Of a stretch of DNA of 39,345 nucleotides, positions 12,888 through 28,809 are shown one piece after another. The DNA lies in NCBI GenBank assembly GCA_964398605.1, contig CAYNNH010000002.1, positions 1 to 39,345 on the forward strand, in the 5' to 3' direction. The stretch's first letter is position 1, and every line of letters starts with the position of its first letter. The DNA is from an uncultured Nitrososphaerota archaeon (GTDB lineage Archaea > Thermoproteota > CAYNNH01). The position numbers and the translations under genes are program-made. The notes beneath the pieces were generated by a model. It ran no database searches. It was given only the letters and a program-made list of their open reading frames with translations, and was not told the DNA's origin.

Positions 12888-13207
12888 TTCTCCGAAAGTA
12901 ATCCCGAAATGAGAGAATCGATTTTCTGGAGCGCGGAACTATCTTCTTTTTTCAGCGCAAAGGACACGAGGCAGATCTTGCCCGTGAGGCGACTCACCTT
13001 CTCCGCGATGAGGCTGGCTGCTGTTGTGTACCTATCTCCTAAGAGGATGGAAGAGGAAGGGGGCATGAAAGCCGAGCGGCTCGGCGCGGCCATGGCAAGA
13101 GTTCCCAAGCGGGGGCTTCCCGAGTACACGAACACGAAGACCGCGTTTTCCATGTCCAATAAGGAGATCGTGATCCCGTTCTCGCTTTTGGAGGATATTT
13201 TCAGCAT
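12884..13207 (-). CDS. Hypothetical 107-aa protein, first gene of the UbiD/AcnX operon
   Basis: The ATG is at 13207, and its stop overlaps the UbiD ATG (ATGA at 12884-12887). I recognise no family. The composition looks like a real alpha/beta protein. Confidence 0.5.
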   Translation of the reverse strand: MLKISSKSENGITISLLDMENAVFVFVYSGSPRLGTLAMAAPSRSAFMPPSSSILLGDRYTTAASLIAEKVSRLTGKICLVSFALKKEDSSALQKIDSLISGLLSEK

Positions 13208-13231
13208 TCTTTTAGCTATTGGCGTAAGTTT

Positions 13232-13891
13232 TTGAGCGTGACAAAAGCTCGGGAAATACTGAAAAGGTTGGAGAAGAACCTCCCCTTGCCCGAATTTGGC
13301 GGGAAGAATTTCTCTCCTTTCGAGAGACTAATAGCGACGATCCTATCCCAGAACACGACCGATAAAAATGCCATTAGGGCTTTCGAAAACCTGAAGCGGA
13401 AAATGGTTATTAAGCCCGAAATTCTGGCGAAGGCAAGCGAGAAAGAAATAGCCAGTTTAATCAGGATAGCGGGTCTCCATAAGCAAAAAGCTAGGACGAT
13501 AAAAAGCGTCTCTAAGAGGATATTAGAAGAATTTGACGGCGATCTTACGCCCATTTTGTCCATGGAGAAAGAAAAAGCACGGGAAGTACTCATCTCTCTG
13601 CCGGGAATTGGAAGGAAGACGGCCGATGTCTTGCTGGCGTTTCACGGGAAGCACCCGACATTCCCCATCGACACCCACGTTAGAAGGGTATCGTTGCGCT
13701 TGGGGCTCGCCAAATCGAGGGACTACGAGAAAATGAGGAAGGAACTCGAATCCCAGTTCGACGAGAAGGATTTCCTGAAGGCGCACATGCTCCTCATAGC
13801 CCTAGGGAGGACGTACTGTAAGGCGAGGAAGCCCCTCTGCGAGGAGTGTTTCCTCAACGACTTATGTCCCTACGGCAGGAAAGCCAAATGA
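13232..13891 (+). CDS. nth: Endonuclease III (HhH-GPD DNA glycosylase/AP lyase with Fe-S cluster)
   Basis: LIATILSQNTTD, HhH LPGIGRKTADVLL, DTHVRRV, and the C-terminal CX6CX2CX5C (CKARKPLCEECFLNDLC). TTG start. Confidence 0.9.
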   Translation: MSVTKAREILKRLEKNLPLPEFGGKNFSPFERLIATILSQNTTDKNAIRAFENLKRKMVIKPEILAKASEKEIASLIRIAGLHKQKARTIKSVSKRILEEFDGDLTPILSMEKEKAREVLISLPGIGRKTADVLLAFHGKHPTFPIDTHVRRVSLRLGLAKSRDYEKMRKELESQFDEKDFLKAHMLLIALGRTYCKARKPLCEECFLNDLCPYGRKAK

Positions 13892-15810
13892 AGCGGTACA
13901 TGGAGTTTTTCCCTTACGAAACTGTCCGCCGCTACCAAGATAGGCTTATGGACCTCGTTTTCGAAGCAGCTTCGAGGGGAGAAACGGCGGTCATCGAGGG
14001 GGCTAACGGGCTTGGGAAAACGGTGGCGGTTCTTTCGGCGCTCCTACCCATCGCGAAGGAGGAAGGGCTCACGATCCTCTACCTAAGCAGGACGCACAAG
14101 CAGATGGACCGAGTGATCGAAGAGCTGAAGGAAATAAGGAAGAGGCATCGGGTGACGGGAGTTTCCATTAGGGGGAGAAGGGAGGTTTGCCTGCACCCCC
14201 TCATCCTCAAGCACGGAGGGGATGCCAAGTCGGTTATGGACGCCTGCAAGAACTTGAGGGCGGAGGGAAAGTGCAAGTACTACGAGAACCTGACGAGGGG
14301 AGGGGAAAGAATCGAAAGCGTGTTGCGGCTAATTGAGGATAGACCTCTTATGGCTTCGGAAATCGTGCAAGTGTGCTCAGACCTCGAAATTTGCCCCTAC
14401 GAGGTGTTGAAGGCGGCTCTGGGGAGCGTTGATGTCGTTTCGATGAGCTACCTCTACATGCTCGACCCCATCATAAGGTCGAGCTTCCTACGGTACTTCG
14501 ACAAGCCGAAGAGCGATTTCATCGTCGTCTTAGACGAAGCGCACAATTTGCCCGATGCCGCCCTCGAAGTAGGGAGCGATTCGTTATCCTTATTAAGCGT
14601 TGAGAAGGCGAGGAAGGAAGCGAAGGACAGGCCCCTATTGAAGCGACTGTGCGACTCCATCGAGGAATTCATGTTGAACGTTGCGAGGCGATTGGAAGGC
14701 GAGGACATCGAAGTGGATCCGTTAGGCTTCGTCGACTACGTCGAAAGGAAGTGCAGGATAGATGCCTATTCGCTCGCGGATGAAGCGCTCTCGGCGGGGA
14801 AGGAGATCAAAAGGGAACTCATTCGAGGGGGGAAGTTTCCGCGATCCTTCCTCTACAAATTGGGGAAGTTCATGTTCCTATGGTTGGAAACGGCGAACAG
14901 CGATGCGTACATTCACCTGCTTTCGGCTTACGAGCGGAGAGATGGTAGCGTATCCTACAAGCTGGAAGTCGTCGCCATGGATCCGCGGGGAATGATCGCG
15001 GACGCTTTCGAGGACGTGAGGAGCCTGATCTGCATTTCGGGGACCCTCCAGCCCATCGATGCTTATTGCGAGATATGCGGCATAAAGAAGAGCAAGTACT
15101 CGGAAGCTTTGCCATCGCCTTTCGCGAGGGATCAGATCGTTTGCTTAGTGTGTAAGGGCGTGTCAACAAGCTTAGAACGGAGGGAACCTGAGATGTACAA
15201 GAAGATGGTGGCGAGGATCGCGGAAGCAGTCGAGTACTCGCCTTGGAACGTCGGGATTTTCACGGCTTCCTACGAAGTGTTGGAGGGATTGCTGGAGGCG
15301 GGAATCGAGGACGTTATCGATGTCCCCCTGCTCGTGGAGCGGAAGCACATGACGTCGAGGGAAAACGACAAGCTCATTCAAGAGTTCAAGAAGCACGCCG
15401 ACGAAGGTAGGAAGGCGGTTTTGTTGGGGGTTCAGGGAGGGAGGAACAGCGAGGGGGAGGATTACCCGGGCAAGTACATGTGCACCAGTATCGTGGTCGG
15501 CGTCCCGTACGCGAAGCCGACGGTACGCGTCAAGGCCCAGATCCGGTACTACGAGAAGCAATTCCCGGGGAGGGGGAAGGAGTACGGGTACATCATGCCA
15601 GCCCTTAGAAAAGCGTCGCAAGCAGCTGGAAGGCCTGTCAGGAAGTTAGACGACCGCGGAGCGGTCATTTTATTGGACTCGAGGTTCGCAACAGCCTATT
15701 GCAGGAGGTACTTGCCGAAGTGGTTGAGGAGGAACTTCCGCGTCTTGCCCGATAGGGAAGGTGAAATAGCGAAGCAACTGGTCTTGTTCTTCGGTTTTAA
15801 AACGGACTGA
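13888..15810 (+). CDS. xpd: XPD/Rad3-family Fe-S DNA helicase
   Basis: The ATG at 13888 overlaps the nth stop (ATGA). It has FPYE..R.YQ, Walker A EGANGLGKT, four Cys of the Fe-S domain (CLHP, ACKNL, GKCKYY, ICPYE), and DEAH as VLDEAHNL. Confidence 0.9.
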   Translation: MKRYMEFFPYETVRRYQDRLMDLVFEAASRGETAVIEGANGLGKTVAVLSALLPIAKEEGLTILYLSRTHKQMDRVIEELKEIRKRHRVTGVSIRGRREVCLHPLILKHGGDAKSVMDACKNLRAEGKCKYYENLTRGGERIESVLRLIEDRPLMASEIVQVCSDLEICPYEVLKAALGSVDVVSMSYLYMLDPIIRSSFLRYFDKPKSDFIVVLDEAHNLPDAALEVGSDSLSLLSVEKARKEAKDRPLLKRLCDSIEEFMLNVARRLEGEDIEVDPLGFVDYVERKCRIDAYSLADEALSAGKEIKRELIRGGKFPRSFLYKLGKFMFLWLETANSDAYIHLLSAYERRDGSVSYKLEVVAMDPRGMIADAFEDVRSLICISGTLQPIDAYCEICGIKKSKYSEALPSPFARDQIVCLVCKGVSTSLERREPEMYKKMVARIAEAVEYSPWNVGIFTASYEVLEGLLEAGIEDVIDVPLLVERKHMTSRENDKLIQEFKKHADEGRKAVLLGVQGGRNSEGEDYPGKYMCTSIVVGVPYAKPTVRVKAQIRYYEKQFPGRGKEYGYIMPALRKASQAAGRPVRKLDDRGAVILLDSRFATAYCRRYLPKWLRRNFRVLPDREGEIAKQLVLFFGFKTD

Positions 15811-17038
15811 GAACCAACTTTTCTTCTTGCGTGAAAGAAGCCGAAAGACGCGTCCTCCCTATCACCACAGCCTTGGGCTTCCTCCTGACGGGCGTCATCA
15901 CTCGGATCTTCCGTTTCTCCGAGTCGATCGCCGATATTATGCCTAACCCCTCCATCCCACCTTTCTTGGTGAACAGGCCCACGAGAACTCTTTCTAGCAC
16001 GTCAATGGAGTGGGCGGCTATCCCCAGCTCCCTCAGCATCTTAAGCAAATCGGGATCGGGCTTCCTGTTGAGGAAGAGGACGGGCCTCCCCCTATCGCGA
16101 TCCGATGCGAGGACTTCGTAGCCGTGTTTCTCGACCAAAGACGATATTTCCCTCGGGACGCGCGTCTCCCTCAGCCCCTTTACCTTCACTTCCTCCATGG
16201 AAACCTCCATTTCCAGCGCTTGCCTGAAGTACCTCAAGTAGAGGTTGCGTCTTATCTCGCGCCGCACCGAAAGGCTCCTCGCCTTCACGTAAGGGGATGG
16301 GGGAAGCTTTTGCACGTAGAACTCCTTGGAAAGGGATTCTTCCATCTCGGGCAAATCGCCTAGGATCACCACCCTATCGGGGGATAGCTTCTCCGCGAGG
16401 GACAGCTTGTACCGCACGGCTTGCTCTTTCTGAACCCAGCCATCCGTGTTGACAATAGTATATTCCTCCTGGGCGAAGGCGAGCAACTGGTCGAGCTTGC
16501 GTAAGATGACGTCCTCCACGCCGGAGGGGCTTATCCAACCCGCCATTTGGAGGATCGAGGGCTTGCTATCCTGCAAGCTGAAGAGGGGAGAATCTATGCG
16601 GCTAACGCCAATGGTCGTGGGGGGACCCAAATCCGATTGTCCGACATCTAAATCCACGAAGGAAACGCTTTCCCCTTCCCTCACGAGGGCGTTCGACAGG
16701 AAGAGGCATAAGCTCGATTTGCCCGAATCCGTAGCTCCAACGACCATCAATCTCTTGGCTTCTCCTTCTAGCAATTCCTTGGAAAGATCCCTCCACTCTT
16801 GCGGGATGGGAGAGCCCACAAATTTCTTGAAGGAAGCCCCTCCTTCGAACTCGAGATCCACTTTACACCTACCAGAAGCTTCGACGGGCACGGATCTGTA
16901 GGAGGGCACGGAAAGGGATTCGCCGGGTCCCAGCGGAGCTCCGAACACGGAAGCCTCTCCGCTCACCACTCGCACTCGGGCGGGACCTTGGACGACGAGG
17001 GATTCTTCTTGTGTAAGTTCCACTATCATCTTGAACAT
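15797..17038 (-). CDS. Clp1/Grc3-like polynucleotide 5'-kinase (COG1341)
   Basis: An N-terminal beta domain, then the P-loop VVGATDSGKSSL and VDLDVGQS. The probable ATG is at 17038 (the track gives TTG 17053). Its 3' end overlaps the XPD 3' end by 14 nt. Confidence 0.75.
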   Translation of the reverse strand: MFKMIVELTQEESLVVQGPARVRVVSGEASVFGAPLGPGESLSVPSYRSVPVEASGRCKVDLEFEGGASFKKFVGSPIPQEWRDLSKELLEGEAKRLMVVGATDSGKSSLCLFLSNALVREGESVSFVDLDVGQSDLGPPTTIGVSRIDSPLFSLQDSKPSILQMAGWISPSGVEDVILRKLDQLLAFAQEEYTIVNTDGWVQKEQAVRYKLSLAEKLSPDRVVILGDLPEMEESLSKEFYVQKLPPSPYVKARSLSVRREIRRNLYLRYFRQALEMEVSMEEVKVKGLRETRVPREISSLVEKHGYEVLASDRDRGRPVLFLNRKPDPDLLKMLRELGIAAHSIDVLERVLVGLFTKKGGMEGLGIISAIDSEKRKIRVMTPVRRKPKAVVIGRTRLSASFTQEEKLVLSPF

Positions 17039-17056
17039 AACGAGTAAAACCAAAGA

Positions 17057-17686
17057 ATGCTAACGACGTCTTGCGGGGGCTTAGATCGGATCCTAGGGGG
17101 AGGACTAGAAGATGGGAAAGTTTACTTGTTGTACGGGAAAGCGGGAACGGGGAAGACGATCCTCTCGTTGAAAATCGCCTGTAATGCGTCTAAGCTCGGA
17201 AACGTCGTTTATCTCGACCCGGGAAGGAACGTGCACCCCGGCGCGTTGTGGGAGGCTTTCGCGTTAGGCGGAGGGAATGCCGAGCACATCCAAATAGTAG
17301 TCCCCGAAACCTTCGAAGATCAAACGAGGTTTCTTGAAAAGACCGTAGGAGCGAGGTTGGCCGCCCTCGTAGTCGACGACATATGCGCTTTGTATTCCCA
17401 GAAGTTGATCGAGAGGGGGCCGTTTGACCTGAGCAAGGAACTCAACAGGCAGATGGCTCTGATCAAGGAAATATCGAAGAAAGCGCCTTGTCCGGCTTTC
17501 GTCACCAGCCACGTACACACGACCCTTCAAGGAGTTGTGGAACCTCCCTCTTACCGCATTTTAAGGCACTGGTCGGATTTCGTCCTCAAAATCGAGAAGT
17601 TACGTAGGGTCATCGAGATAAGCGTCGAGAAGCCGTACAAGACCTTCGTACGGCTGAGTCTGGAAGAACTAACGTGGGAAGCGTGA
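17057..17686 (+). CDS. RecA-superfamily ATPase paralog (RadB/aRadC/KaiC-like)
   Basis: GGLDRILGGGLEDGKVYLLYGKAGTGKT (Walker A) and Walker B LVVDD. It is short (209 aa). Confidence 0.7.
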   Translation: MLTTSCGGLDRILGGGLEDGKVYLLYGKAGTGKTILSLKIACNASKLGNVVYLDPGRNVHPGALWEAFALGGGNAEHIQIVVPETFEDQTRFLEKTVGARLAALVVDDICALYSQKLIERGPFDLSKELNRQMALIKEISKKAPCPAFVTSHVHTTLQGVVEPPSYRILRHWSDFVLKIEKLRRVIEISVEKPYKTFVRLSLEELTWEA

Positions 17687-18186
17687 TTGACTTCCTCATC
17701 GCCCTAGGCTGGGCGATTTGGTACGTCCTTCCCGCCTACATAGCGAACGCCATGCCTACTATCCTCGGAGGTGGCGTTCCTATTGATGGAGGGAAGAAAA
17801 TGGGCGATGGTCGACCAGTTTTCGGTTCCCACAAGACGGTGAGGGGCTTCGGTGTGGGCGTACTCTTCGGGAGCCTTGTCGGTTTCGTTCAAGCCGCGAC
17901 TTTAGGCCCCATTTTGAGAATCTGCTCAGGAATTCTGCAGGGCTTGGGGGCCATGTTAGGGGACCTCGCTGGATCCTTCATCAAAAGGAGGAAGGGTATT
18001 AAGCCGGGAGACCCGCTCCCCCTTTTAGACCAGCTCGATTTCGTCCTCGGAGCCGTCGCTCTTTCCTACTTGGTGGAACCCTTCAGTCTTATCACGTTTC
18101 TCTTGATCCTGTCCATAACACCCCCACTTCACGTGCTAACCAACGTAATCGCCTACTTGCTCAAGATAAAAGAAAAGCCTTGGTAA
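17683..18186 (+). CDS. carS: CDP-archaeol synthase (DUF46 family)
   Basis: LPAYIANAMPTILGGG.PID.G....DGRPVFGSHKTVRGF matches the CarS signature, and the protein is multi-TM. The probable GTG at 17683 overlaps the upstream stop (GTGA). The alternative is GTG 17674. Confidence 0.8.
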   Translation: MIDFLIALGWAIWYVLPAYIANAMPTILGGGVPIDGGKKMGDGRPVFGSHKTVRGFGVGVLFGSLVGFVQAATLGPILRICSGILQGLGAMLGDLAGSFIKRRKGIKPGDPLPLLDQLDFVLGAVALSYLVEPFSLITFLLILSITPPLHVLTNVIAYLLKIKEKPW

Positions 18187-18597
18187 TTAGCCCAAGAGTT
18201 CCTTCAGCAATTCCGCGTACTGCTGGGGAGTTAGAAGCTTGCCCTTTTCCTCCTCCAGATTCGAGGGCCTGATGACGCAGATCCAGCCCTCGCCATAGGG
18301 GTCTTGGTTTACGAGTTCCGGAGCGTCTTCCAGTTTCTTGTTCACCTCCACGACTTCCCCCGAAACTGGGGCGTAAACGTCGCTGGCCACCTTCACGCTC
18401 TCGACTGTCCCGAGGGGCTTCATGTGCTCCGCCTTAGCGCCCACTTCCGGGAGGCTTACGTAGACTATCTCGTGCAACATCTTCTGGGCGTAGTCGGTTA
18501 TGCCGATCCTAACGAGGCCGTTGGGTTCTATTTTCGCCCACTCGTGCTCCCTCGTGTAAAGGAGGTCTTCCCTCACCTCGTAACCATCCACCTTCAT
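18187..18597 (-). CDS. gcvH: Glycine cleavage system H protein
   Basis: HEWAK, and the lipoyl-lysine motif GTVESVKVASDVYAPVSGEVVEVN. Its stop abuts the carS stop (taatta). Confidence 0.9.
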   Translation of the reverse strand: MKVDGYEVREDLLYTREHEWAKIEPNGLVRIGITDYAQKMLHEIVYVSLPEVGAKAEHMKPLGTVESVKVASDVYAPVSGEVVEVNKKLEDAPELVNQDPYGEGWICVIRPSNLEEEKGKLLTPQQYAELLKELLG

Positions 18598-18619
18598 GCT
18601 GAGAATTTACGCTCCGAAT

Positions 18620-19750
18620 TTATTCGGTTGTCCTCTTCCAGCCGTATCTCGACTCGTCGTAGAAGGGCCATCGGACGACTTTGGCTTTCGCCTTCCGGTT
18701 TTTCATCGCAACGTAGACATCCTGCCCTTCCTTTGCGTATTCTATCGAAACGTAGCCCATCCCAATCCCCTTTCGGAGTATGGGGGAATATGTTCCACTC
18801 GTGACGAAGCCGATTTCTTCCCCGTCCGACCATATGGCTTGTCCGTGGCGGGGTATGCCCTTGTCCACCATCTCGATGCCTACTCTCTTCCGCTTGATGC
18901 CCTCCTCGAGAACCTTCAGTATGGCGTCCCTCCCGATGAAGTCGCCCTTCTTCAGCTTCACGACGAACTTCAGGTCGGCCTCGATGGGATTGGTTTCCTC
19001 CGTGATGTCGTTGCCGTAAAGGCACATGCCCGCTTCTAGGCGCAGGGAGTCCCTCGCTCCCAATCCGCAGGGCTTTATCCCAAATTCTTTCCCAGCTTCC
19101 AGCATGGAATTCCACAATTGGAGGACGGGATCGGGCTCCTCGAGCGGAACGTCGAAGAGTATCAACTCGAAGCCGTCCTCCCCCGTGTAGCCAGTCCGCG
19201 TAACGAGAACTTCGCGTCCCTCGTGCTTGAAGAGAAGGCCTCTAAAGCGTCTGACAGTTGCTAGGTCTTTTTTCAGGGCTTTCTCCAAAACCTTGACGGC
19301 GTAGGGCCCTTGAACCGCGATCATGGGGGCCTCGTCGGAAATGTCCCTTAGCTGAACGTCGAACGAGCGCGAGTTCTCCCGCAACCAGTTGAAGTCTTTT
19401 TCGCGGTTGGAAGCGTTGTACACGAGGAGGAACTTCTCCTCTGAAAGGCGACATATGGTCAGGTCGTCCTTGATCCCCCCAGAGGGGTTGCAGAAGAGCG
19501 TATATTGAACTTGGAAGTCCTTGAGGCGACGCACGTTGTTCGTCGTCACGTAGTTGAGGAAAGGTAGGGCGTCCTTACCCTCGACTAGGCACCTCCCCAT
19601 GTGGGTTACGTCGAAAACTCCCACAGCGTTCCGTACGGCTAGGTGCTCGGGGATTATTCCTTCGTACCAAAGGGGCATCGAGAAACCCGCGAACTCCCCC
19701 ATACGGGCTCTTTCCACGTGCCATTCGTAGAGGTGGGTCTTCTTCGCCAC
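18620..19750 (-). CDS. gcvT: Glycine cleavage system T protein (aminomethyltransferase)
   Basis: 376 aa with LYEWH, MPLWY, AVGVFDVTHMG, RTGYTGEDGFEL and RLEAGMCLYGND. GTG start. Confidence 0.9.
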   Translation of the reverse strand: MAKKTHLYEWHVERARMGEFAGFSMPLWYEGIIPEHLAVRNAVGVFDVTHMGRCLVEGKDALPFLNYVTTNNVRRLKDFQVQYTLFCNPSGGIKDDLTICRLSEEKFLLVYNASNREKDFNWLRENSRSFDVQLRDISDEAPMIAVQGPYAVKVLEKALKKDLATVRRFRGLLFKHEGREVLVTRTGYTGEDGFELILFDVPLEEPDPVLQLWNSMLEAGKEFGIKPCGLGARDSLRLEAGMCLYGNDITEETNPIEADLKFVVKLKKGDFIGRDAILKVLEEGIKRKRVGIEMVDKGIPRHGQAIWSDGEEIGFVTSGTYSPILRKGIGMGYVSIEYAKEGQDVYVAMKNRKAKAKVVRWPFYDESRYGWKRTTE

Positions 19751-19753
19751 TCC

Positions 19754-19774
19754 TTAAAAAGAAGGAGCGTTTAT
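19754..19774. promoter_or_regulatory. Two crossed candidate TATA elements in the 34-bp gcvT/cofE divergent spacer
   Basis: ttaaaaa (19754-19760) lies about 28 nt upstream of the cofE ATG at 19785. tttat (19770-19774, ataaa on the minus strand) lies about 22 nt upstream of the gcvT GTG at 19750. Confidence 0.3.
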
Positions 19775-19784
19775 CACATGTCCC

Positions 19785-20558
19785 ATGAAGGAGGTGCGTT
19801 TGTTCCCCATAAAAACGCGGCTTCTCCGCGAGGGAGATGATTTGCTGAGCGTTATTAAGGAAAGCATGGCGAAAATGGGCCTCGAGTTCGAGGACGGGGA
19901 TATCCTCGTCGTATCGAGCAAGGCCGTTTCAACGGTCCAAGGGAGGGTGGTGTCCCTGTCGGACATCAGGCCATCCGATAGGGCCAAGGAAGTCGCGCGC
20001 AGATATTTCCTAGATCCGAGAGTAGCCCAGCTCATCGTCGAGGAGGTCGACGTGGTTCTCGGAGGCGTTCCACGCGTCCTTTTAGCTTGCAAAGAGGGGG
20101 ATTGTCTGCCCAACGGCGGGATAGATCGCTCCAATGTCCCCGAGGGGCACGTCGCCTTGTATCCGAAAGACCCCATGTCGTACGCCGAGTGGTTGAGGAG
20201 GAGGATCCTCTACGAGTGCGGGGCGAAGGTCGGGGTCGTAATCGCCGATAGCCGCGTTCAGCCATCGAGGGTGGGAACCGTGGGCATCGCCATAGGAGTC
20301 GCCGGAATGGAGCCCGTCGAGGATTTAAGGGGGGAGAAGGACCTCTTCGGGAAGGTCCTCTGCGTAACGAGGAGAGCGATAGCGGACCAAATAGCGTCGG
20401 CGGCGGAGCTTCTCATGGGGGAAAGCGATGAGAGGATACCTGCCGTGCTCGTAAGAGGGCTAAGCGTTCAGCTCACGGACAGAAAAATAAGAAAAGAGGA
20501 GTTCGTCATCGAGTTCGACGAGTGCCTCTTCTTGAGGCAGATCTCACCTCTATTTTGA
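19785..20558 (+). CDS. cofE: CofE-like F420-0:gamma-glutamyl ligase family protein
   Basis: GDILVVSSKAVS, NGGIDRSN, VIADSRVQPSRVGTVGIAIGVAG, ADQIASAAELLMGESDERIPAVLVRG. Confidence 0.75.
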   Translation: MKEVRLFPIKTRLLREGDDLLSVIKESMAKMGLEFEDGDILVVSSKAVSTVQGRVVSLSDIRPSDRAKEVARRYFLDPRVAQLIVEEVDVVLGGVPRVLLACKEGDCLPNGGIDRSNVPEGHVALYPKDPMSYAEWLRRRILYECGAKVGVVIADSRVQPSRVGTVGIAIGVAGMEPVEDLRGEKDLFGKVLCVTRRAIADQIASAAELLMGESDERIPAVLVRGLSVQLTDRKIRKEEFVIEFDECLFLRQISPLF

Positions 20559-20697
20559 GGGATTTGAGTTGTATGCTCAATTTGGCCTTGCATTTCGGAC
20601 AACGCCTATCGTACTTCTTCGCAATATCGCGGGGGGACTTTAACTCCGTTCCCTTGTACAGCACGTAGCCGCAGTTCGAGCACTTGATGATGAGCAA
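20506..20697 (-). CDS. Small zinc-ribbon protein (CxxC...CxxC), function unknown
   Basis: The TTG-initiated ORF is MLIIKCSNCGYVLY...RRCPKCKAKL. Two CxxC pairs spaced 22 aa apart argue it is real. Its 3' end overlaps the cofE 3' end by 53 nt. Confidence 0.4.
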   Translation of the reverse strand: MLIIKCSNCGYVLYKGTELKSPRDIAKKYDRRCPKCKAKLSIQLKSLKIEVRSASRRGTRRTR

Positions 20698-20703
20698 GCT
20701 ATA

Positions 20704-21156
20704 ATGGAATACCGGTCAAATAAAAGAATGGCTAGAAGGCTGAGGAGGATTCGATCCCGTTTCAAGAGACTATTTAGGTTGAGGCCTGGGTGGAAGGAGA
20801 GGTTGAGGCCTTACCTCATCATTGCTTTCGTTTGCCTCTTCTTGTTCATAGCGGGAGGGGGACTGTACGATATAACCGAGAGGCCGGGGGCCTTAGTGGG
20901 CTACCGCGGAGGCGGGTTGCCTTCCTTCGTTGCCCTTTATTCGCTGGGCGATCAAACGCTAACGGAAAGCATATTCAGCATGGTCCTCCTCGGCATAGGC
21001 GTTTTAGGTTGTTGGATAGCCTACGAGGGAACTAGGTACGTCTACGACGTGCGGAAGGGGACTATGTACATCATCATAGGCGTAGTTCTCATCGTCGTAG
21101 CAGTCGTTACGCTGATGTACATCCTGCGCATCAAGCTGTACGGTCCTTATGCGTAG
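20704..21156 (+). CDS. 3-TM membrane protein resembling the eukaryotic OSTC/DC2 (Ost3/6 membrane-domain) oligosaccharyltransferase subunit
   Basis: It has a basic N-terminal tail and three hydrophobic helices. The by-eye alignment to human OSTC (from memory) is ITGGIIYDVIVEPPSVG vs [36 protein letters not shown]..GGLGF vs [24 protein letters not shown], and the C-terminal MRMKLPGY vs LRIKLYGPY. The length is the same (149 vs 150 aa). Confidence 0.55.
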   Translation: [150 protein letters not shown]

Positions 21157-21724
21157 TTCTCTCCGCCTAGAAAAAGCTATCAAAAACTGCCGAGCGTGCT
21201 CCTTCGTCGACAAGCCCTTCGTCACGTACGGCGCTTACAGGAAGTGGCTACCAGAAAAGGTCAGGGTGCTCGCAGTAGGCGAATCCCCTCCTCCCGGCAG
21301 GAAGCGCTCCTTCTTCTACAACCTCGCCCAGTTTGATAGACTGAGGCTATCCATGAGGCTCATAACGGGGAAGCGAGAGGAAGAGCTCTTGCGGTGGCTC
21401 AAGAGAAGGGGGATTTTCATAACGGCGGCGGTGAAGTGCAGGCCTCCGAAGCCTTCCGACATAACCTCCATGCGTAAGAAGTGCGAGCGATGGCTCCGCA
21501 TGGAAATCGAGTTGCTGAGGCCGGAGAGGATCGTAGCCATGGGGAGGACGGCTGTTCGCTCTTTGTGCACTGTACTAGGCTTAAGAGAGCCGGATAGCGT
21601 TAGGGATTTGGTGGAAGTCGAAAAAAGAGGTTATAGAATTGCCTTTGGACCTCACCCCAATTACGTCTTCAGGTTCAGACGGGATATCTCGAAGGATTAC
21701 CTTAGGATTCTAATCTTCGAATAG
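21149..21724 (+). CDS. Uracil-DNA glycosylase superfamily protein (divergent family 4/5-like, Fe-S type)
   Basis: CRAC near the N-terminus, VLAVGESPPPG in place of the GEAPG motif, ITAAVKCRPP, KKCERWL, IVAMG and GPHPNY. It overlaps the upstream gene by 8 nt. Confidence 0.65.
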   Translation: MRSSLRLEKAIKNCRACSFVDKPFVTYGAYRKWLPEKVRVLAVGESPPPGRKRSFFYNLAQFDRLRLSMRLITGKREEELLRWLKRRGIFITAAVKCRPPKPSDITSMRKKCERWLRMEIELLRPERIVAMGRTAVRSLCTVLGLREPDSVRDLVEVEKRGYRIAFGPHPNYVFRFRRDISKDYLRILIFE

Positions 21725-22862
21725 GGACGACGATTTCCTCCTTGTAGCCGCTTATCACACGCATATACTTGGGGAATTGGGCGTCCAGATCGGGATCTCC
21801 CGTGTCCACCCTCAAGAAAGGAGTGTTGGCAATTTTGTAGGGGGTAGCCACGACGGTTACGTTCTCGATGCCTACCTGTTTCAGGACTTCGGCGCTTATT
21901 TGCTGATTCCCTCTCCCAAAGATGAAACCTTGTCTTCCTATGGGCGTGACTATGATGCGAGCTTTGGAATGCTTCCTCAGCAAGGAAAGTATTTGCTTCT
22001 CGTTTACGTCCCTCGCGACCAGTTTCCCGTTTAAATATACGTCAACCCCTAGCAAGGTTTTCGGTTGGTTCAGGGCGTCAGCGATGGCCTTCGTCGTCGT
22101 CCCCGGCCCTATGATGTACAGCACATCCTTCTCCATCCTCTCGACGACCTCTTTCGCGATCCCCCTCTTCGCTTCCCTTTCGTCGGGCGTGAAGGGACTC
22201 GCCATCTTCGTGCCTTGGATGAGTTGCGGCTCGTAAGGAGTTTTTACGTAGCCGTAGAGCTTGGCGGAAAGCCTCCCTTCCCTGAAGGCCTCCTCGTCCA
22301 CGTCCATGACTTCCGCGTACTCGACCGAGAGCTCGCCATCGAAGAATCGCCTCACTATGGTAGCGGCCGCTTCGGGACTTTCGGCGAAAACGGAACTATG
22401 CATTTTTACTCCCGTCGGTATGCCCAAGACCGGGACGTCTTCCCCCACGGCGTCCAAAATGTCCCTAGCGGTTCCGTCTCCTCCCGCGAATACGATCAAG
22501 TCCACCTTCTCTTTCATGGCCCGGGCGGCTTCCTTCGTGTCCTCGGCGGTCGTCTTCTCCTTCGGTTCCCCTATGATCTGAGCTTCAATTCCACAAGAGA
22601 AGCACTCTTCCTCCCCCATGGGGCGGGCCGCGGTGGTGACGGAAATGTCGTCCATCCCCAGCTTCTTGAGGGCCTTCAGAAAGCGGATGGTCCTAGCGGG
22701 AGAAACGGGCTTTGCTCCCAGCTCGATGGCTTTTCTGAGGATTTCCTCCCCATCCGTTCCCTTAAGGCCTACCGATCCTCCCATTCCCGCTATGGGGTTT
22801 ACGATGAGGCCTAATCGGCCCAATTCATCCCTATGAGGACTTCCTTTTCGCCTATGCGCCAC
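21702..22862 (-). CDS. ATP-NAD kinase-like protein (COG3199 / AcoX-like)
   Basis: LIVNPIAGMGGSVGLKGTDG, FAGGDGTARD and GIPTGVKMHS. The start is uncertain (ATG 22862 or TTG 22823); both overlap the ileS 3' end. Confidence 0.7.
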   Translation of the reverse strand: MAHRRKGSPHRDELGRLGLIVNPIAGMGGSVGLKGTDGEEILRKAIELGAKPVSPARTIRFLKALKKLGMDDISVTTAARPMGEEECFSCGIEAQIIGEPKEKTTAEDTKEAARAMKEKVDLIVFAGGDGTARDILDAVGEDVPVLGIPTGVKMHSSVFAESPEAAATIVRRFFDGELSVEYAEVMDVDEEAFREGRLSAKLYGYVKTPYEPQLIQGTKMASPFTPDEREAKRGIAKEVVERMEKDVLYIIGPGTTTKAIADALNQPKTLLGVDVYLNGKLVARDVNEKQILSLLRKHSKARIIVTPIGRQGFIFGRGNQQISAEVLKQVGIENVTVVATPYKIANTPFLRVDTGDPDLDAQFPKYMRVISGYKEEIVVPIRRLES

Positions 22863-25774
22863 TTCTTCTCGAAGCGACTCGGCGGGGTTTCCTCGCCCGC
22901 GAGCAATAGGGAAATTTCCTTCGCCCGCGTCTCAGTCTTGACGTACTCCAGATTCGCGCGCAACCAAGAGCGTTCTTTCTCGGAAGGGAGGACGATCCAT
23001 AAGTCTACGTAAGCCTCCACGGGAAGGTCGGCTCTCTTCCTCATTTCTTGAATTCTGCGCACGACATCTTTGACGAAGCCTTCGGCGAGCAAGTCCTCGG
23101 TGAGTTGCACGTCTAAGCAAACGACGCAGAAAGGTAATTCCTTGATGGCGTATCCCTCCCCCGGCAAGGACTTAGCCTCCTCGGGCGGGCAGGTTCGCAC
23201 GTTCTTCACGTTGCAAGCGCTTAAGAGGATGGACGAGAAAAGCTCCACCACGTCTCCGACATCCCCCGCGAGGACTATTTCGCGGAGGGGTTGGCGTGCC
23301 TTAATCCCGTGCTCCTTTCTCAATGAGAGGACGGCGCTCACTACTGCTTTGGTCTTCTCCATGGCGGAGAGGATTTTTTCGTCCACCAAAGATGGGTCTG
23401 CTTCGGGCCAAGAGAGCATCCCCACGGAATCGGGACCTCCTTCAGTAGGCCTCACGAAGCGCTGATAGAGCTCCTCAGCTATGAACGGGACAAAGGGCGA
23501 AAGCATGATCAGCAACTCCTTCAACACCTTGTACAGGACCACGTAGCAGGCGATCTTGTGGGGGACGTGCCGCTCCTCCCAAACCCTGCGTCTTATGAGG
23601 CGGACGTACCACCTGCTCAATTCCTCGACGAAGAACTCGCGCAAAGTCCTCGCCGCATCGTGGATCCTATATGCGTCCAGTGCTTCCGTTACCTCCCGCT
23701 TCAACGATTCGAACCTCGCTAGCAACCAGCGATCCTCGGGAAAGGCGTGCTCGAGGGCGTAATCCATCGAGTAAGAACCGGGATCGAACTTGTCCAGCGA
23801 CATGTAGAGGCTCGCGAAGTAGCAGGTGTTCCATAGGATTTGGAGGTCCCTCCACGCCCTCTCCACCGCCGTCCAGTCGAAGCTCATGTCGTCCCAAGCC
23901 GTGCACTGCAGTTCGTAAAAGCGCAGAGCGTCCCGGCTATACTTCTCGATGACTTCTTCAGGATAGATGACGTTCCCGAGTGATTTGTGCATGGGCATCC
24001 CCTTCGGGTCGAGGGCGAATCCGTGCACGAGAACCTTCTTGTAGGCTGGCCTGTCGAAGCCTATGATCCCCGAGAGGAGGAGGGTGTAGAACCAGCCCCT
24101 CGTTTGGTCGTGGCCCTCTATGATGAGGTCGGGAGGCCACCACCGCTCAAATTCCTCCCTTTCCTGCGGGAACCTCAAGCAAGCCCAAGAAGCTATTCCG
24201 GAATCCATCCAAACGTCCAAGACGTCGGGAACTCTCCTAGCTGTCCCCCCGCACGAGCAAGGGAAAGTTATCTCGTCGACGAAAGGCCTGTGGAGCTCTA
24301 GGTCGGAGAGGTCCCTCCCGCAAAGTTCGGAAAGCTCCTTCTTGGAGCCCACCACGTAGATTTTGCCGCACTTCTCGCAGATCCAGACGGGCATGGGAGC
24401 CCCCCAAAACCTCTGACGGCTTATGACCCAATCCCTAGCGTTCTCCAGCCAATCCTTGAACCGAGCATCTCCCATCCAGGGCGGGATCCACTCAGTTTCG
24501 CGATACTTCTCGAGGAGTTGGCGGGGGTCGACCTTGATGAACCATTGCTGGGTGGCGCGTACGATGAGCCTCGACTTGCACCTCCAGCAGTGGGGATATC
24601 GGTGGTAGAGGGAGCCCTCCGTCAGGAGCAAACCTTTCTTCTTCAGGTCTTCTACGATGACGGGGTTTGCCTCGAAAACGTTCATGCCCGCGTATTTGCC
24701 CGCTTCCTCGGTAAAACGCCCGTCGGGGCCTACCGGGGACAGGACGGGCAAGCCGTACTTTATCCCGACGAGCCAGTCTTCTTCGCCGTGACCGGGGGCC
24801 GTGTGCACGCAGCCCGTCCCTTCCTCCATGGTCACGAACTCCTCGCTGAGCACGACCACGTGGGCGTTCTCGAGTTCTCGATGGACGGGGACTTCTTCCG
24901 AAAGCGGATGGCGGTACTTGAGGCCTTCCAGCTCCCTGCCCGCGAACGTTTCGAGGACTTTCCACGCCTTCCCGAGGGGGGCGAGGGTCTCGTAGCACCT
25001 CGCGCTCGCGAGTATGTAGACTTCGTCCCCCACTTGGATGCGACAGTATTCCGCGTCCGGGTGGACCATCACGGCGACGTTCGCGGGTATGGTCCAAGGA
25101 GTGGTCGTCCAAATGAGGATGTACTCCCGCTCCCTCCCCTCGACGGGGAACTTCACGACGATGGAGGGATCTTCGACTTCGCGGTATTCTTGAGCTACTT
25201 CCGCGTGGGAGAGGACGGTTTCGCACCTAGGGCACCACCAAACCGCCTTTTCCATTCGCCGCAAGAGCCCTTTCTCGTGGGCCTTCTTCACGAGCCACCA
25301 CTCGGACTCGATCCACTCGTCCCTCAGCGTCAAGTAGGGCGAATCCCAGTCCATCCAGACGCCAAGCTCCTTAAACTGATTAGTGAGCAAGGAAAGGTTC
25401 TTCTCGACGAGTTTCTTGCACTCCTCGACGAACTTGGCGATCCCTATGCGCTCAATTTCCTTCTTGCTCTTAATCCCCAACGACGACTCAACGGCGACCT
25501 CGATGGGGAGGCCGTGCGTGTCGAAGCCCGGCTGGCACCTCACCCGATGCCCGCGGAGCCACTTGTAGCGCAAAACGCAGTCCTTGAGGATCTTGTTCCA
25601 AGCGGTTCCCACGTGGATGGGATTCGTCACGTACGGGGGACCGTCGAGGAAGTAGAACTTCTTCCCTTCTCTCTGCATGAGTTTGCGGACAATCTTCTTC
25701 TCTTCCCAATAGCGGAGAATGCGTGGTTCGTATTCCTTGGGGTCATATTTCTTCGGGATTAGCGGAACCACCAT
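22811..25774 (-). CDS. ileS: Isoleucyl-tRNA synthetase (archaeal type)
   Basis: The HIGH region is PPYVTNPIHVGTAWNKILKD. It has the CP1 editing-domain blocks, WCPRCETVLSHAEV and WISRQRFWG-type motifs. The KMSKS region reads PMHKSLGN. Length is 987 aa. Confidence 0.9.
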   Translation of the reverse strand: MVVPLIPKKYDPKEYEPRILRYWEEKKIVRKLMQREGKKFYFLDGPPYVTNPIHVGTAWNKILKDCVLRYKWLRGHRVRCQPGFDTHGLPIEVAVESSLGIKSKKEIERIGIAKFVEECKKLVEKNLSLLTNQFKELGVWMDWDSPYLTLRDEWIESEWWLVKKAHEKGLLRRMEKAVWWCPRCETVLSHAEVAQEYREVEDPSIVVKFPVEGREREYILIWTTTPWTIPANVAVMVHPDAEYCRIQVGDEVYILASARCYETLAPLGKAWKVLETFAGRELEGLKYRHPLSEEVPVHRELENAHVVVLSEEFVTMEEGTGCVHTAPGHGEEDWLVGIKYGLPVLSPVGPDGRFTEEAGKYAGMNVFEANPVIVEDLKKKGLLLTEGSLYHRYPHCWRCKSRLIVRATQQWFIKVDPRQLLEKYRETEWIPPWMGDARFKDWLENARDWVISRQRFWGAPMPVWICEKCGKIYVVGSKKELSELCGRDLSDLELHRPFVDEITFPCSCGGTARRVPDVLDVWMDSGIASWACLRFPQEREEFERWWPPDLIIEGHDQTRGWFYTLLLSGIIGFDRPAYKKVLVHGFALDPKGMPMHKSLGNVIYPEEVIEKYSRDALRFYELQCTAWDDMSFDWTAVERAWRDLQILWNTCYFASLYMSLDKFDPGSYSMDYALEHAFPEDRWLLARFESLKREVTEALDAYRIHDAARTLREFFVEELSRWYVRLIRRRVWEERHVPHKIACYVVLYKVLKELLIMLSPFVPFIAEELYQRFVRPTEGGPDSVGMLSWPEADPSLVDEKILSAMEKTKAVVSAVLSLRKEHGIKARQPLREIVLAGDVGDVVELFSSILLSACNVKNVRTCPPEEAKSLPGEGYAIKELPFCVVCLDVQLTEDLLAEGFVKDVVRRIQEMRKRADLPVEAYVDLWIVLPSEKERSWLRANLEYVKTETRAKEISLLLAGEETPPSRFEKKWRIGEKEVLIGMNWAD

Positions 25775-25800
25775 CGCAAGCTAGAGAGAAGGAAATACCG

Positions 25801-25808
25801 TAAATAAA
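25801..25808. promoter_or_regulatory. AT-rich taaataaa element in the 53-bp ileS/aglB divergent spacer, a candidate shared or bidirectional TATA box
   Basis: It is centred about 24 nt upstream of the aglB GTG at 25828, and about 31 nt upstream of the ileS ATG at 25774 on the other strand (tttattta). Confidence 0.35.
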
Positions 25809-25827
25809 GGTCAAGGCTAGCTTATGG

Positions 25828-27915
25828 GTGAGCGCCCTCAAGAAGGTGTTTAGTAAGAAGAAAATAGCGGCCGCCTTCTCCACCATGCGTAAGAACGTGC
25901 CGAAAATGCGTCTTAGGACAGTTTTGGAGGTTTTCGCCGTGACCCTCGCCGCTTTGGTCGCCCTGTTGGTGAGGTTATTGCCCTTAAGGTGGGGCGCGGA
26001 ACTCTCCGAGTTCGACCCATACTACCACTACTATGTCGCGGAGTTTTTCGCGGAACGTTGGCCGAAGGTGTGGGAGATCACGACGTGGAGGATTTACAAC
26101 ATGTGGTACCCCTACGGGAGGCAGGTGCTTCCCACCACGCCGCCTGGACTTCCTCTCACCGCCGCGGTCATCTACCTGTTCCTGCGATCCCTAGGGGCGA
26201 ACGTAACCCTTTACGATGTGTGCGTATACTTCCCGCCTTTTATGGCCGCTTTGACGTGCGTTGCCGTATATTTCTTCGCGAGGGATCACTACGGGAAGGC
26301 CGTGGGGATATTCTCCTCCCTCTTCCTCGCCGTTAATTCCGGATATATCACGAGGACTTACCTAGGCTTCTTCAAGCACGAGTCGCTGGGCATTCTCCTC
26401 ATTGTGCTCGTGGCTTTCCTTTTCTTGAGGGCGCTCGACGAGCGAAGGAGTTTCAAGCAAACGATCACATACGCCGTTTTGGCGGGCTTGACGCAAGGAT
26501 ATCTGAGCGTTAGCTGGACAGCCTACTTGTATACCCTCGACCTCATAGCCCTCTTCGTCATGGCGCTTTGCTTGATAGGAAGATACGACAGGAGAATTTT
26601 ACTCGCCTACGCCTCCTTCGTAGGCGCCGACTACACCATCATGTTGTTCACACCAAGAACTCTCGGGAGGATGAAGGGAATCGAATCCGTCCTCATCATC
26701 CTCGCTTTCCTCATCGCTTGCGTATGCGAACTAAGTCGAAGGATCGAGGATCGAAGGACGAAAATAAAAGTAATCGGGGGCATTACGGGCACTTTGGTCG
26801 TATTAGTTTTGACTAGCGTGGTGTTTGGGTTCATCTTAATGCCGAAAGGAAAGCTCTTGGGCGCGATAAACCCAGCCATGCGATCCCCCATTGTGAGCTC
26901 GGTAGCGGAACACAGACCCATGACGTGGGCATCCCTCTTCTACGATTACGGAATCCTGCTCATCTTAGCGTGTTTCGGTTGCATAATTTTGCTTAGAAGG
27001 CTGACCAACGTCGACCTGTTCATGACGCTTTACGGGATCACGGCGTTATATTTCGCGAGCTCCATGGCGAGGCTGACTTTGGTGCTGGCCCCAGCGATTT
27101 GCGTGTTGTCTTCGATAGGACTCGTCTACTTGGTGCGCTCTTTCAGGCAAATAGCGAGGAAAGGAAAGCTACCAGCGAGGAAGCTTCTGAAACGGATGCC
27201 TTCTGAGTTAGGGTGGCTAGGCATTGTGGCATTATTCGTCCTCCTCCTTCCCACTCTCTGGAGGGGGATCTTGACCGCATATACCCCGGCGACCATCATA
27301 TGTGCCAGCGTCCCCGTGGGCAGGAATTACCAAGGTGAGTACACCGACTGGCTAGAGGCTGTTGCTTGGATTAGGGAGAACTTGCCCAAGGACGCGGTAG
27401 TGGCGTGCTGGTGGGACTACGGATATTGGGTCTCAATACCGGGCAATAGAACTTCCCTCGCCGACAACGCGACAATAAACACAACGCAGATAGCCAACAT
27501 AGCCCGCATGTTCCTCTCTGAGGAAAGGGTAGCTGTGAAAATACTGCATCGATATGATGCAGACTATGTCCTCGTCTTCACGACATTGGGCAAGAACATG
27601 ATGTATGGGGATGAAGCGAAGTGGCCGTGGATGGCCCAGATATCGGGCATGACGGGCAGGAACACGACGGTTCTCGTCGACCCCGACCTGCGGAAGCAGA
27701 ATCTCTACCTGCCGAGGAAGGAGTTCGTTATCACGAAGCTCATTATCTACACGGCGTACTACGACAAGGCGACGGGGAGGTGCTCTAGGTACAAGGACAT
27801 CTATAAAGAAGATGCCCCCGAGTTCTTCGACCTCGTCTTCGTTTCCTCGAACAACATGGTAGGCATATTCGAGGTGAATTATGAGAAAGCGAGGGCAGAG
27901 GGAATAATTAGCTAA
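25828..27915 (+). CDS. aglB: Oligosaccharyltransferase AglB (STT3 homolog)
   Basis: Multi-TM N-terminal domain with FDPYYHYY and the catalytic WWDYGYW (nt 27409-27429). The following block is strongly eukaryotic-STT3-like. The start is GTG 25828, or ATG 25885/25906. Confidence 0.9.
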   Translation: MSALKKVFSKKKIAAAFSTMRKNVPKMRLRTVLEVFAVTLAALVALLVRLLPLRWGAELSEFDPYYHYYVAEFFAERWPKVWEITTWRIYNMWYPYGRQVLPTTPPGLPLTAAVIYLFLRSLGANVTLYDVCVYFPPFMAALTCVAVYFFARDHYGKAVGIFSSLFLAVNSGYITRTYLGFFKHESLGILLIVLVAFLFLRALDERRSFKQTITYAVLAGLTQGYLSVSWTAYLYTLDLIALFVMALCLIGRYDRRILLAYASFVGADYTIMLFTPRTLGRMKGIESVLIILAFLIACVCELSRRIEDRRTKIKVIGGITGTLVVLVLTSVVFGFILMPKGKLLGAINPAMRSPIVSSVAEHRPMTWASLFYDYGILLILACFGCIILLRRLTNVDLFMTLYGITALYFASSMARLTLVLAPAICVLSSIGLVYLVRSFRQIARKGKLPARKLLKRMPSELGWLGIVALFVLLLPTLWRGILTAYTPATIICASVPVGRNYQGEYTDWLEAVAWIRENLPKDAVVACWWDYGYWVSIPGNRTSLADNATINTTQIANIARMFLSEERVAVKILHRYDADYVLVFTTLGKNMMYGDEAKWPWMAQISGMTGRNTTVLVDPDLRKQNLYLPRKEFVITKLIIYTAYYDKATGRCSRYKDIYKEDAPEFFDLVFVSSNNMVGIFEVNYEKARAEGIIS

Positions 27916-28669
27916 TATAGCTGGGCATCCGCTCTTTAAACTCCTTGATCCTCTCCCTGAAATCTTCGACGAACTTCTTCCTTGCGATTTCTGCTTTCTT
28001 TATGTCATCGTCGAGCTTCGAGTAGTCTATCTTTAGTCCTAAGAGCTTCTCGAGGATTTTGAGAACCGCCTTTGCGGCGCTGAAATCCTCGGCGTATCCC
28101 CTCGTTTCCCCCAAGAGGACGAGCCCGTCTATTCCGTAAAACTGAGCCAGAGCCACCAGAATTCCCGCCATCCCGACTATGGGCGTCGCGGAAGCTGGGG
28201 TAATGCCCAAGGCCTTCACTTTTTCCTCTCCCCGCCGCCCTATGTACGCAGCGAAGACCCTACGCTCCTTCTCCCTGCAAGGAGCTCTGAAGCCCGCCAA
28301 CACGATGAGTTCGGAAACCCCCAACTTCTTCGCGAATTTAATGATCTCCTCCGATATGGAGTAATGTCCCTCCAAGCTCTCCGCTTGGCTATCCCCGGTG
28401 AGCAAAATGAGGTCTCGGCCCCCTCCTTTCGCGTGGTAGAAGTAGCACTTGAGGAGGTGCACCATTCCTTCTTCGTCGACGAGCACGTAATAGGGGAGGT
28501 GATACGAGATGAGCTCGGCGAATTTCTCCGCTTTTAGGGAGCTTATGAGGTATTCGACAGCGAGCTTGCCCACGTACCCCACTCCAGGAAGCCCGCTTAT
28601 CAAAATCGGGTTTTTGAAGGAGACTTTCTTCAGCTCGTTGATCCACGTCTCCATTCTCTTATCTTCCAC
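27908..28669 (-). CDS. PAC2-family protein (proteasome assembly chaperone-like, COG1938)
   Basis: NPILISGLPGVGYVGKLAVEYLI is typical of archaeal PAC2 proteins. The alternative start is ATG 28654. Its 3' end overlaps the aglB 3' end by 8 nt. Confidence 0.7.
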   Translation of the reverse strand: MEDKRMETWINELKKVSFKNPILISGLPGVGYVGKLAVEYLISSLKAEKFAELISYHLPYYVLVDEEGMVHLLKCYFYHAKGGGRDLILLTGDSQAESLEGHYSISEEIIKFAKKLGVSELIVLAGFRAPCREKERRVFAAYIGRRGEEKVKALGITPASATPIVGMAGILVALAQFYGIDGLVLLGETRGYAEDFSAAKAVLKILEKLLGLKIDYSKLDDDIKKAEIARKKFVEDFRERIKEFKERMPSYIS

Positions 28670-28809
28670 ATACGCCGATATTTGCCGTATTTATCGTCCA
28701 TCCTGAACTTCGGGGGATAAGGCGAAATCGTCTTCTCGCCACAGGAAGGGCAGGTATCCTTCAGCGTGTAGCGGCCACACTTGGGACACTTCCTAAGGAG
28801 CTTAGGCAT
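28630..28809 (-). CDS. nop10: H/ACA RNP component Nop10 (59 aa; absent from the supplied ORF track)
   Basis: My hand translation is [53 protein letters not shown]..., the Nop10 Zn-ribbon and PP.F signature. The ATG overlaps the aIF2alpha stop by 8 nt, and the tail overlaps the PAC2 start by 40 nt. Confidence 0.85.
   Translation of the reverse strand: MPKLLRKCPKCGRYTLKDTCPSCGEKTISPYPPKFRMDDKYGKYRRMWKIREWRRGSTS

Follow-up and report, generated by a model that had tools for sequence, protein, structure and literature searches.

A DC2/OSTC-like three-helix member of the OST3/OST6 family encoded near a eukaryote-like STT3 in a Thermoproteota archaeon

Analysis of a 39,345-nucleotide stretch of DNA from an uncultured Nitrososphaerota archaeon (GenBank assembly GCA_964398605.1, contig CAYNNH010000002.1, positions 1 to 39,345; this whole stretch is referred to as the window) revealed a gene at 20704-21156 on the forward strand whose product is an archaeal member of the OST3/OST6-OSTC family, with the architecture of human DC2 (OSTC), a subunit of the oligosaccharyltransferase (OST), and with neither a thioredoxin domain nor a fourth helix. 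A match to OSTC/DC2 had been proposed in an original prediction made by eye from the sequence, and it proved to be real: profile searches returned the family, and both fold and topology of the protein were compatible with DC2. Homology of this OSTC-like protein to DC2 and to the last three helices of Ost3/6/MagT1 is practically certain. The open reading frame (ORF) exists as originally described, coding for 150 aa with three transmembrane (TM) segments according to the ORF list and hydropathy, which places the hydrophobic segments at approximately residues 37-55, 85-107, and 120-142. The gene and the parts of its product are the following.

20704-21156, forward strand: OSTC/DC2-like gene, three-TM module of the OST3_OST6 family, ATG start, 150 aa.
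20704-20811, forward strand: basic N-terminal tail (residues 1-36), predicted to be cytoplasmic, with 16 K/R and 2 D/E and a helix at 5-23 in the AlphaFold2 model.
20812-20880, forward strand: TM1, with the conserved GGG-L-YD motif (G52, G53, Y55, D56) following at its outer end.
20953-21027, forward strand: Q84-x3-E88 motif and TM2, including the invariant G102.
21061-21153, forward strand: TM3 (G126) and the short, predicted external C-terminal tail K144-L-Y-G147.

Regarding sequence homology, human OSTC was the first match of the single protein sequence among PDB chains (phmmer, chain 6s7o_H, E=0.0018), the alignment joining query residues 27-147 to residues 21-145 of the 149-aa human protein. 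All three alignment blocks quoted in the original prediction were recovered by HMMER against this chain, and the human OSTC sequence given there was therefore correct. The top Pfam match was OST3_OST6 (PF04756; E=1.5e-4, 21.7 bits, profile positions 185-288 of 294), corresponding to the last three helices of the profile. No NCBIfam model matched the protein, which fits the annotation of its relatives as hypothetical. An exact look-up of the protein returned no record, and a word-indexed search with the single protein found only an 86-aa fragment, 99% identical and located on a 618-bp contig, beyond which the protein is at most 42% identical to anything. The family surfaced with an exhaustive HMMER search, which yielded 124 representatives at 50% clustering, nearly all of 120-190 aa and matched over their full length. 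A family profile built from the OSTC-like protein and 65 relatives (66 sequences) detected human OSTC over its full length (E=1.3e-17) and residues 215-326 of MagT1 (E=8.5e-8) in the PDB; nothing besides these two was found at E<=1, and yeast Ost3/6 was not detected by the sequence profile at that threshold. The match to MagT1 was weaker than that to OSTC (35 vs 67 bits). Individually, 53 of the 66 match PF04756 (E<=0.01), the best at 9.5e-12. The Pfam and profile comparisons proposed as a check of the original prediction thus lead to OST3_OST6 and OSTC, and at the profile level the protein is a member of the PF04756 superfamily, though its own sequence taken alone falls under the cut-off. The Smith-Waterman score against human OSTC was 83, while shuffled sequences had means of 30-34 and a maximum of 66 (z=8.7-10.6), and none of 2000 shuffles reached 83 even when shuffling was confined to each TM or loop segment. 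For the shuffles, as for the ten-sequence alignment and the clustering described below, the human OSTC sequence used agrees with the PDB chain at residues 21-145.

An AlphaFold2 model made from the family alignment (pLDDT 93.6, pTM 0.76) has TM helices at residues 30-50, 86-110, and 116-146. This predicted model fits DC2 chains in the superposition that had been suggested along with the match. The DC2 chains 9n9j_J, 8b6l_J, 8pn9_H, 6s7o_H, and 6ftg_3 stood within the best nine Foldseek matches, the other chains among these nine being MagT1 (6s7t_H), yeast Ost3 (8agc_H, 8age_H), and Ost6 (7oci_C). The best match was 9n9j_J (E=3.5e-5), and among the top six, TM-scores on the target were 0.63-0.81 and root-mean-square deviations (rmsd) 2.4-3.3 A, including 0.80 for 6s7o_H (rmsd 2.4 A), 0.81 for 8pn9_H, and 0.80 for 8b6l_J. 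From rank 10 onward all matches had E>2, and no significant non-OST chain was found in the PDB.

The distribution of charge follows the positive-inside rule: the N-terminal tail (net charge +6.1, the family mean) and loop 2 (+2.0) are placed inside, and loop 1 (-1.0) outside. The resulting N-in/C-out topology with three TM helices is that of DC2, for which an N-cytosolic, C-lumenal orientation with three TM helices has been shown by experiment (PMC5674889). In an alignment of ten sequences from TACK and Asgard archaea together with human OSTC and human MagT1, residues G52, Q84, G102, G126, and K144 are invariant, and across the family G52 never varies, while conservation is 90% or higher at G53 and Y55. 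The motifs kept are GG-x-YD after TM1, Q-x3-E before TM2, glycines in TM2 and TM3, and a C-terminal K-x-x-G. The GGG-L-YD of the OSTC-like protein aligns with GGIIYD of human OSTC, and its C-terminal K-L-x-G with the KLPG tail of human DC2; deletion of the DC2 C-tail blocks assembly into the STT3A complex (PMC5674889). Features of Ost3/6 proper are absent: there is no Cys pair in the N-terminal 36 residues, the hydrophobic segments number three, and no thioredoxin-type Pfam match was obtained. The archaeal versions examined (~135-190 aa) are likewise too short for a thioredoxin domain and match the three-TM module only.

The position of the start codon is uncertain by eight codons. A second ATG at 20728 (M9) gives 142 aa and an N-terminal tail of 28 residues, against a family mean of 29, and is preceded, at a distance of 23-30 nt, by a TATA-like GCTATAAT (20698-20705); because of this family-typical tail and the spacing of the TATA-like element, the product may be of 142 rather than 150 aa, and the spacing suggests a leaderless transcript. 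With all 36 residues, the tail has a net charge of +14, compared with the family mean of +6.1. A promoter at GCTATAAT, if used, would overlap the start of the divergent ZnR gene described below.

Regarding phyletic distribution, the original prediction had held that such proteins are sparse in archaea and come mainly from Asgard genomes, which is not so: the profile search of a collection clustered at 90% identity returned at least 404 proteins, mostly of Bathyarchaeia. The named ones were all called "hypothetical protein" and came from metagenome-assembled genomes (MAGs) of Bathyarchaeia, and many of the relatives carry a precomputed PF04756 match. The family was also found in a Nezhaarchaeota MAG (locus L069), and relatives from Lokiarchaeota, reached directly by phmmer, bear the NCBI name "OST3 / OST6 family protein". 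The latter are among the longer relatives (~160-190 aa), which have an N-terminal PW-x-FG...LRKPK motif. Clustering on BLAST scores placed human OSTC with the Asgard-type set and the window protein with the TACK set. This taxonomic survey covered metagenomic proteins, mostly nameless, and 10-kb flanks rather than whole genomes. In a Hecatellales MAG (ex4484_218, locus L002, 853-1319) the OSTC-like gene seems to carry a truncation or frameshift; the profile hidden Markov model (HMM) matches two short ORF pieces, of which the main one stops after TM2.

The source of the window appears to be a deep, poorly sampled branch of Thermoproteota near Methanomethylicia, Nezhaarchaeales, and Bathyarchaeia, and not an Asgard lineage, because its isoleucyl-tRNA synthetase (IleRS) is at most 54% identical to others (named matches from Methanomethylicota, Nezhaarchaeota, and Bathyarchaeia) and its STT3 at most 41% identical to those of Bathyarchaeia and Hecatellales.

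Around the OSTC-like gene the following genes are of interest.

20506-20697, reverse strand: zinc-ribbon mini-gene (ZnR), 63 aa, CxxC-x22-CPxC, divergent from the OSTC-like gene and 6 bp apart.
21149-21724, forward strand: UDG-superfamily glycosylase gene (Pfam UDG, E=5.6e-14), a neighbor that is probably unrelated in function.
21702-25774, reverse strand: NAD kinase (NADK, 21702-22862) and IleRS (22811-25774), the synteny spacer between the OSTC-like gene and STT3.
25828-27915, forward strand: eukaryote-like STT3/AglB, 695 aa, the proposed partner (Pfam STT3, 1e-46), with WWDYGY and NRTSLADNATINTT.

The eukaryote-like STT3 noted in the original prediction is indeed present, 4.67 kb downstream, and its best PDB match is human STT3A (264 bits, E=3.4e-77; aligned over residues 30-631), followed by STT3B (218 bits) and yeast Stt3 (216 bits), an order in keeping with an STT3A-type subunit, although these are scores and not a phylogeny. 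Euryarchaeal AglB reached ~35 bits, through C-terminal domains only. The window STT3 carries the eukaryote-type segment WWDYGY...NRTxLxDNxTxNxT and reads NRTSLADNATINTT where the human sequence reads NRTILVDNNTWNNT.

The genomic linkage of the two genes was surveyed in a scan anchored on STT3, in which the flanks of 64 loci were searched with the family HMM; an OSTC-like ORF was detected in seven (L002, L004, L006, L009, L016, L031, and L041). Among loci anchored on other proteins, in three from Bathyarchaeia (L065-L067) STT3 lies 3.9 kb from the OSTC-like gene, and in L069, from the Nezhaarchaeota MAG, 7.9 kb from it; over the window and the related loci the distance is 0.2-8 kb, in at least five arrangements. 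Part of the neighborhood belongs to a conserved block of genes for UbiD, HhH-GPD, XPD, Clp1, a RadA-like protein, CarS, GcvT/H, ZnR, NADK, IleRS, STT3, PAC2, Nop10, and eIF2-alpha (window positions 11577-29587; loci L014, L020, L033, and L065-L070), which is common to Bathyarchaeia, Nezhaarchaeota, and Methanomethylicia. The order NADK-IleRS-STT3 is conserved in Methanomethylicia loci, and a Lokiarchaeota contig has kept OST3/6 followed by convergent NADK and GcvH. The order of genes in the block is conserved unusually deep given their mostly unrelated functions.

The ZnR gene has homologs of 54-68 aa with the pattern MPxxVxCxxC..LYxGxELxxPxEI...GxCPxCxxxL, and in 27 Thermoproteota loci it precedes STT3, several times as the immediate neighbor on the same strand. 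Profile searches of PDB, Pfam, and NCBIfam with ZnR returned generic zinc-ribbon noise only and no family. Divergent pairing of ZnR with the OSTC-like gene was found in four lineages, namely the window, L016, L041, and L069, and in L016 and L041 the OSTC-like gene (reverse), ZnR (forward), and STT3 (forward) are directly adjacent (ZnR homologs at 9667-9897 in L016, 9752-9952 in L041, 18249-18443 in L069, and 4673-4879 in L033, a Methanomethylicia locus). Among the genomic evidence, this three-gene pattern, recurring across rearrangements, hints most strongly at a functional link, and ZnR itself could be an unrecognized AglB-linked factor. Beside ZnR in the Methanomethylicia loci, a divergent OSTC-like gene was not found at E<50 with filters off. 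An unrelated ORF of ~200 aa with two or three hydrophobic segments lies there immediately upstream of ZnR on the same strand (L014 4194-4799, L020 3747-4376, L033 4081-4704), and might be an analogous membrane partner.

By analogy with its relatives, the OSTC-like protein is probably a non-catalytic membrane partner of the STT3A-like AglB, a role that is the most likely one because all solved structures with this module show it attached to STT3 within OST subcomplex II. STT3A is the specific binding partner of DC2, which links it to Sec61, and loss of the cognate STT3 destabilizes DC2, MagT1, and TUSC3 (PMC5674889; PMC7226087; PMC10859629). In such a role the OSTC-like protein would bind the TM domain of the AglB encoded 4.7 kb away at the position of DC2/Ost3 in subcomplex II, with the external C-tail mediating assembly, and would stabilize or tune AglB; it may also bridge AglB to the SecYE-beta channel, so that glycosylation would be coupled to translocation. 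The basic cytoplasmic N-terminal helix may, speculatively, contact lipid head groups, the translocon, or the ribosome. Several observations weigh against this partnership. According to reviews, archaeal AglB works as a single subunit (PMC7226087; PMC8993221), and the OSTC-like protein alone, at 21.7 bits, is under the PF04756 gathering score of 27. Much of the proximity to STT3 lies inside a conserved block of unrelated housekeeping genes, so that the linkage could be inherited rather than functional, and since the synteny reaches Lokiarchaeota it points to old vertical inheritance and weakens a functional reading of the linkage. No STT3 was found within 10 kb of the homolog in L070 (Lokiarchaeota) and L072, and Methanomethylicaceae loci have the ZnR-STT3 block with no OSTC-like gene detected nearby.

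Some of these observations would suit a true OST3/OST6 member that acts independently of AglB, either as a small transporter or in cation handling, as once proposed for MagT1/TUSC3, or as a partner of another membrane machine, for instance the Sec translocon by itself or ZnR. The label of PF04756 in Pfam reads "OST3 / OST6 family, transporter family", the homologs in L070 and L072 lack a nearby STT3, most of the proximity to STT3 falls within the housekeeping block, and the tightest recurrent neighbor is the ZnR gene and not STT3. However, the structurally characterized relatives, DC2, MagT1, Ost3, and Ost6, have all been seen as STT3-bound OST subunits, three of the human proteins of this kind depend on their cognate STT3 for stability (PMC5674889), ZnR itself is most often directly upstream of STT3, and with three helices and no conserved charged residue deep in the membrane the protein is a poor candidate for a transporter; an AglB-independent role, the main rival reading, is accordingly considered unlikely. 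Resemblance to OSTC by chance or composition, as between any two hydrophobic three-TM proteins, would be in keeping with the modest statistics of the single sequence (E=0.0018 against the PDB, a Pfam score below gathering, and ~21-25% identity), but it is effectively refuted by the family profile, which matches OSTC across its full length, by five polar or glycine positions invariant from TACK and Asgard archaea to human in the ten sequences, by the failure of all 2000 segment-preserving shuffles to reach the score, by significant Foldseek matches to OST subunits only, and by the direct phmmer match to the Lokiarchaeota "OST3 / OST6 family protein". A coupling to the UDG-like glycosylase, for example with the OSTC-like protein as a membrane anchor for a repair enzyme, has in its favor that both genes are on the same strand and that start and stop overlap by 8 nt. 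The original prediction had called this overlap odd; the overlap is real (ATG at 21149, stop at 21154-21156) and the downstream gene is UDG-like, but the overlap is ordinary, as overlaps occur at 24 of the 40 gene junctions in the window, many of them joining genes of unrelated function (e.g., Nop10/eIF2-alpha by 8 nt and Dph2/uL16 by 11 nt). No UDG homolog was found near the OSTC-like gene in any related locus, the neighbor on the corresponding side being CarS in Bathyarchaeia and Nezhaarchaeota and NAD kinase in Lokiarchaeota. With overlaps common in the window and the pairing absent elsewhere, a functional reading was rejected; the overlap is incidental, and the coupling is effectively excluded.

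Regarding the remaining genes, the window is a very compact archaeal segment of 55% GC that also encodes GcvT/H, CofE, PAC2, Nop10, eIF2-alpha, primase, PCNA, SRP54, and others. Scans with Pfam found none of Ost1, Ost2, Ost4, Ost5, Wbp1, Swp1, and KCP2 in the window, ORFs of less than ~50 aa (e.g., of the size of Ost4) lying outside the scan. The UDG-like protein is divergent (49 bits with the NCBIfam type-4 UDG model, against a cut-off of 250), and, judging by its N-terminal CxxC (NCRACSF), may be an Fe-S type UDG from a subgroup not yet classified. The sole Rfam match in the window is an 86-nt tRNA at 6572-6657 on the reverse strand, its length being that of a class II or intron-containing tRNA. 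A 116-aa ORF at 8494-8844 (forward strand) contains an Auto_anti-p27 zinc-finger domain (E=6.9e-14; Sjogren's syndrome/scleroderma autoantigen 1 family), a family that takes its name from the human autoantigen. In Bathyarchaeia an ORF of 75-77 aa overlaps the start of the OSTC-like gene (L065 9784-10017, L067 9784-10011) and corresponds to the very C-terminal end of topoisomerase I (positions 605-674 of the 677 in NF004438); the upstream topoisomerase gene appears to be split, or its zinc-finger end to have been called as a separate gene.

The presence of the OST3/6 family in archaea is already known. Homologs in Asgard archaea have been reported since 2017, according to passages in two later papers (PMC10307638; PMC8993221), Asgard OST3/OST6 is listed as a eukaryotic signature protein (PMC10307638; PMC11284389), and a 2024 paper states that both TACK and Asgard archaea have OST1 and OST3/6 (PMC11417166); the gain from the present analysis is limited accordingly. 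In the open-access literature searched, no description was found of archaeal proteins as DC2-like and scoring best to OSTC, of the recurrent arrangement of OSTC-like gene, divergent ZnR, and STT3, or of a synteny extending from Thermoproteota to Lokiarchaeota. OST accessory subunits have mostly been discussed as eukaryotic signature proteins of Asgard archaea, and a DC2-like subunit is widespread in Thermoproteota, alongside a eukaryote-like STT3 and in an old, partly conserved neighborhood, such that at least one accessory subunit predates the TACK/Asgard split. It may be, although this is tentative and rather doubtful as a whole, that the TACK/Asgard ancestor had a multi-component OST comprising a eukaryote-like STT3, a DC2-like subunit, and possibly ZnR, that the DC2/OSTC form is ancestral and Ost3/6 was derived from it by gain of a helix and a thioredoxin domain, and that the original job of the subunit was docking of AglB on the SecYE-beta translocon, allowing co-translocational glycosylation. 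If true, coupling of the OST-A type would predate eukaryotes and not be specific to Asgard archaea. Small, thermostable gene pairs of STT3 and its three-TM partner, with or without ZnR, make the question of whether archaeal OST is a complex directly testable.

Compared with known systems, the OSTC-like protein of the window is 30-42% identical and similar in length to the ~139-aa PF04756 "hypothetical proteins" of Bathyarchaeia, with which it also has in common a synteny block of CarS, Clp1, XPD, GcvT, ZnR, and STT3. In Bathyarchaeia, however, topoisomerase I precedes the gene, and ZnR lies ~2.4 kb away in divergent orientation, whereas the window gene is 6 bp from ZnR, on the strand of STT3, and followed by the UDG-like gene. 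The Asgard "OST3 / OST6 family" proteins (Lokiarchaeota TXT65921.1, 183 aa; P. syntrophicum DSAG12_01196) are likewise three-TM modules that have no thioredoxin domain; a phmmer search started from the window protein reached them directly (P0076, E=3.4e-6), and NADK and GcvH are neighbors in both. They differ in being longer (~160-190 aa), in their N-terminal PW-x-FG...LRKPK, and in falling in a separate similarity cluster that takes in human OSTC, while the window protein is from Thermoproteota. With yeast Ost3/Ost6 and human MagT1/TUSC3 the window protein aligns over their last three TM helices, but these proteins have a signal peptide, a lumenal CxxC thioredoxin domain, and four TM helices, none of which is found in the window protein.

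Human OSTC/DC2 (6S7O chain H) differs from the window protein in that the two are only ~21-25% identical, the archaeal N-terminal tail is much more basic (16 K/R in 36 residues), and the archaeal protein would reside in the plasma membrane rather than in the endoplasmic reticulum. Pfam scans of the window detected neither KCP2 nor the other eukaryotic OST subunits, and by BLAST score human OSTC groups with the Asgard type and the window protein with TACK. Nevertheless, human OSTC is both the best sequence match and the best structure match of the window protein, and the STT3 of the window genome scores highest to STT3A. The two proteins agree in length (149 vs 150 aa), three TM helices, N-in/C-out topology, and lack of a soluble domain, and they have in common GG-x-x-YD, Q-x3-E, glycines in TM2 and TM3, and the C-terminal K-L-x-G.

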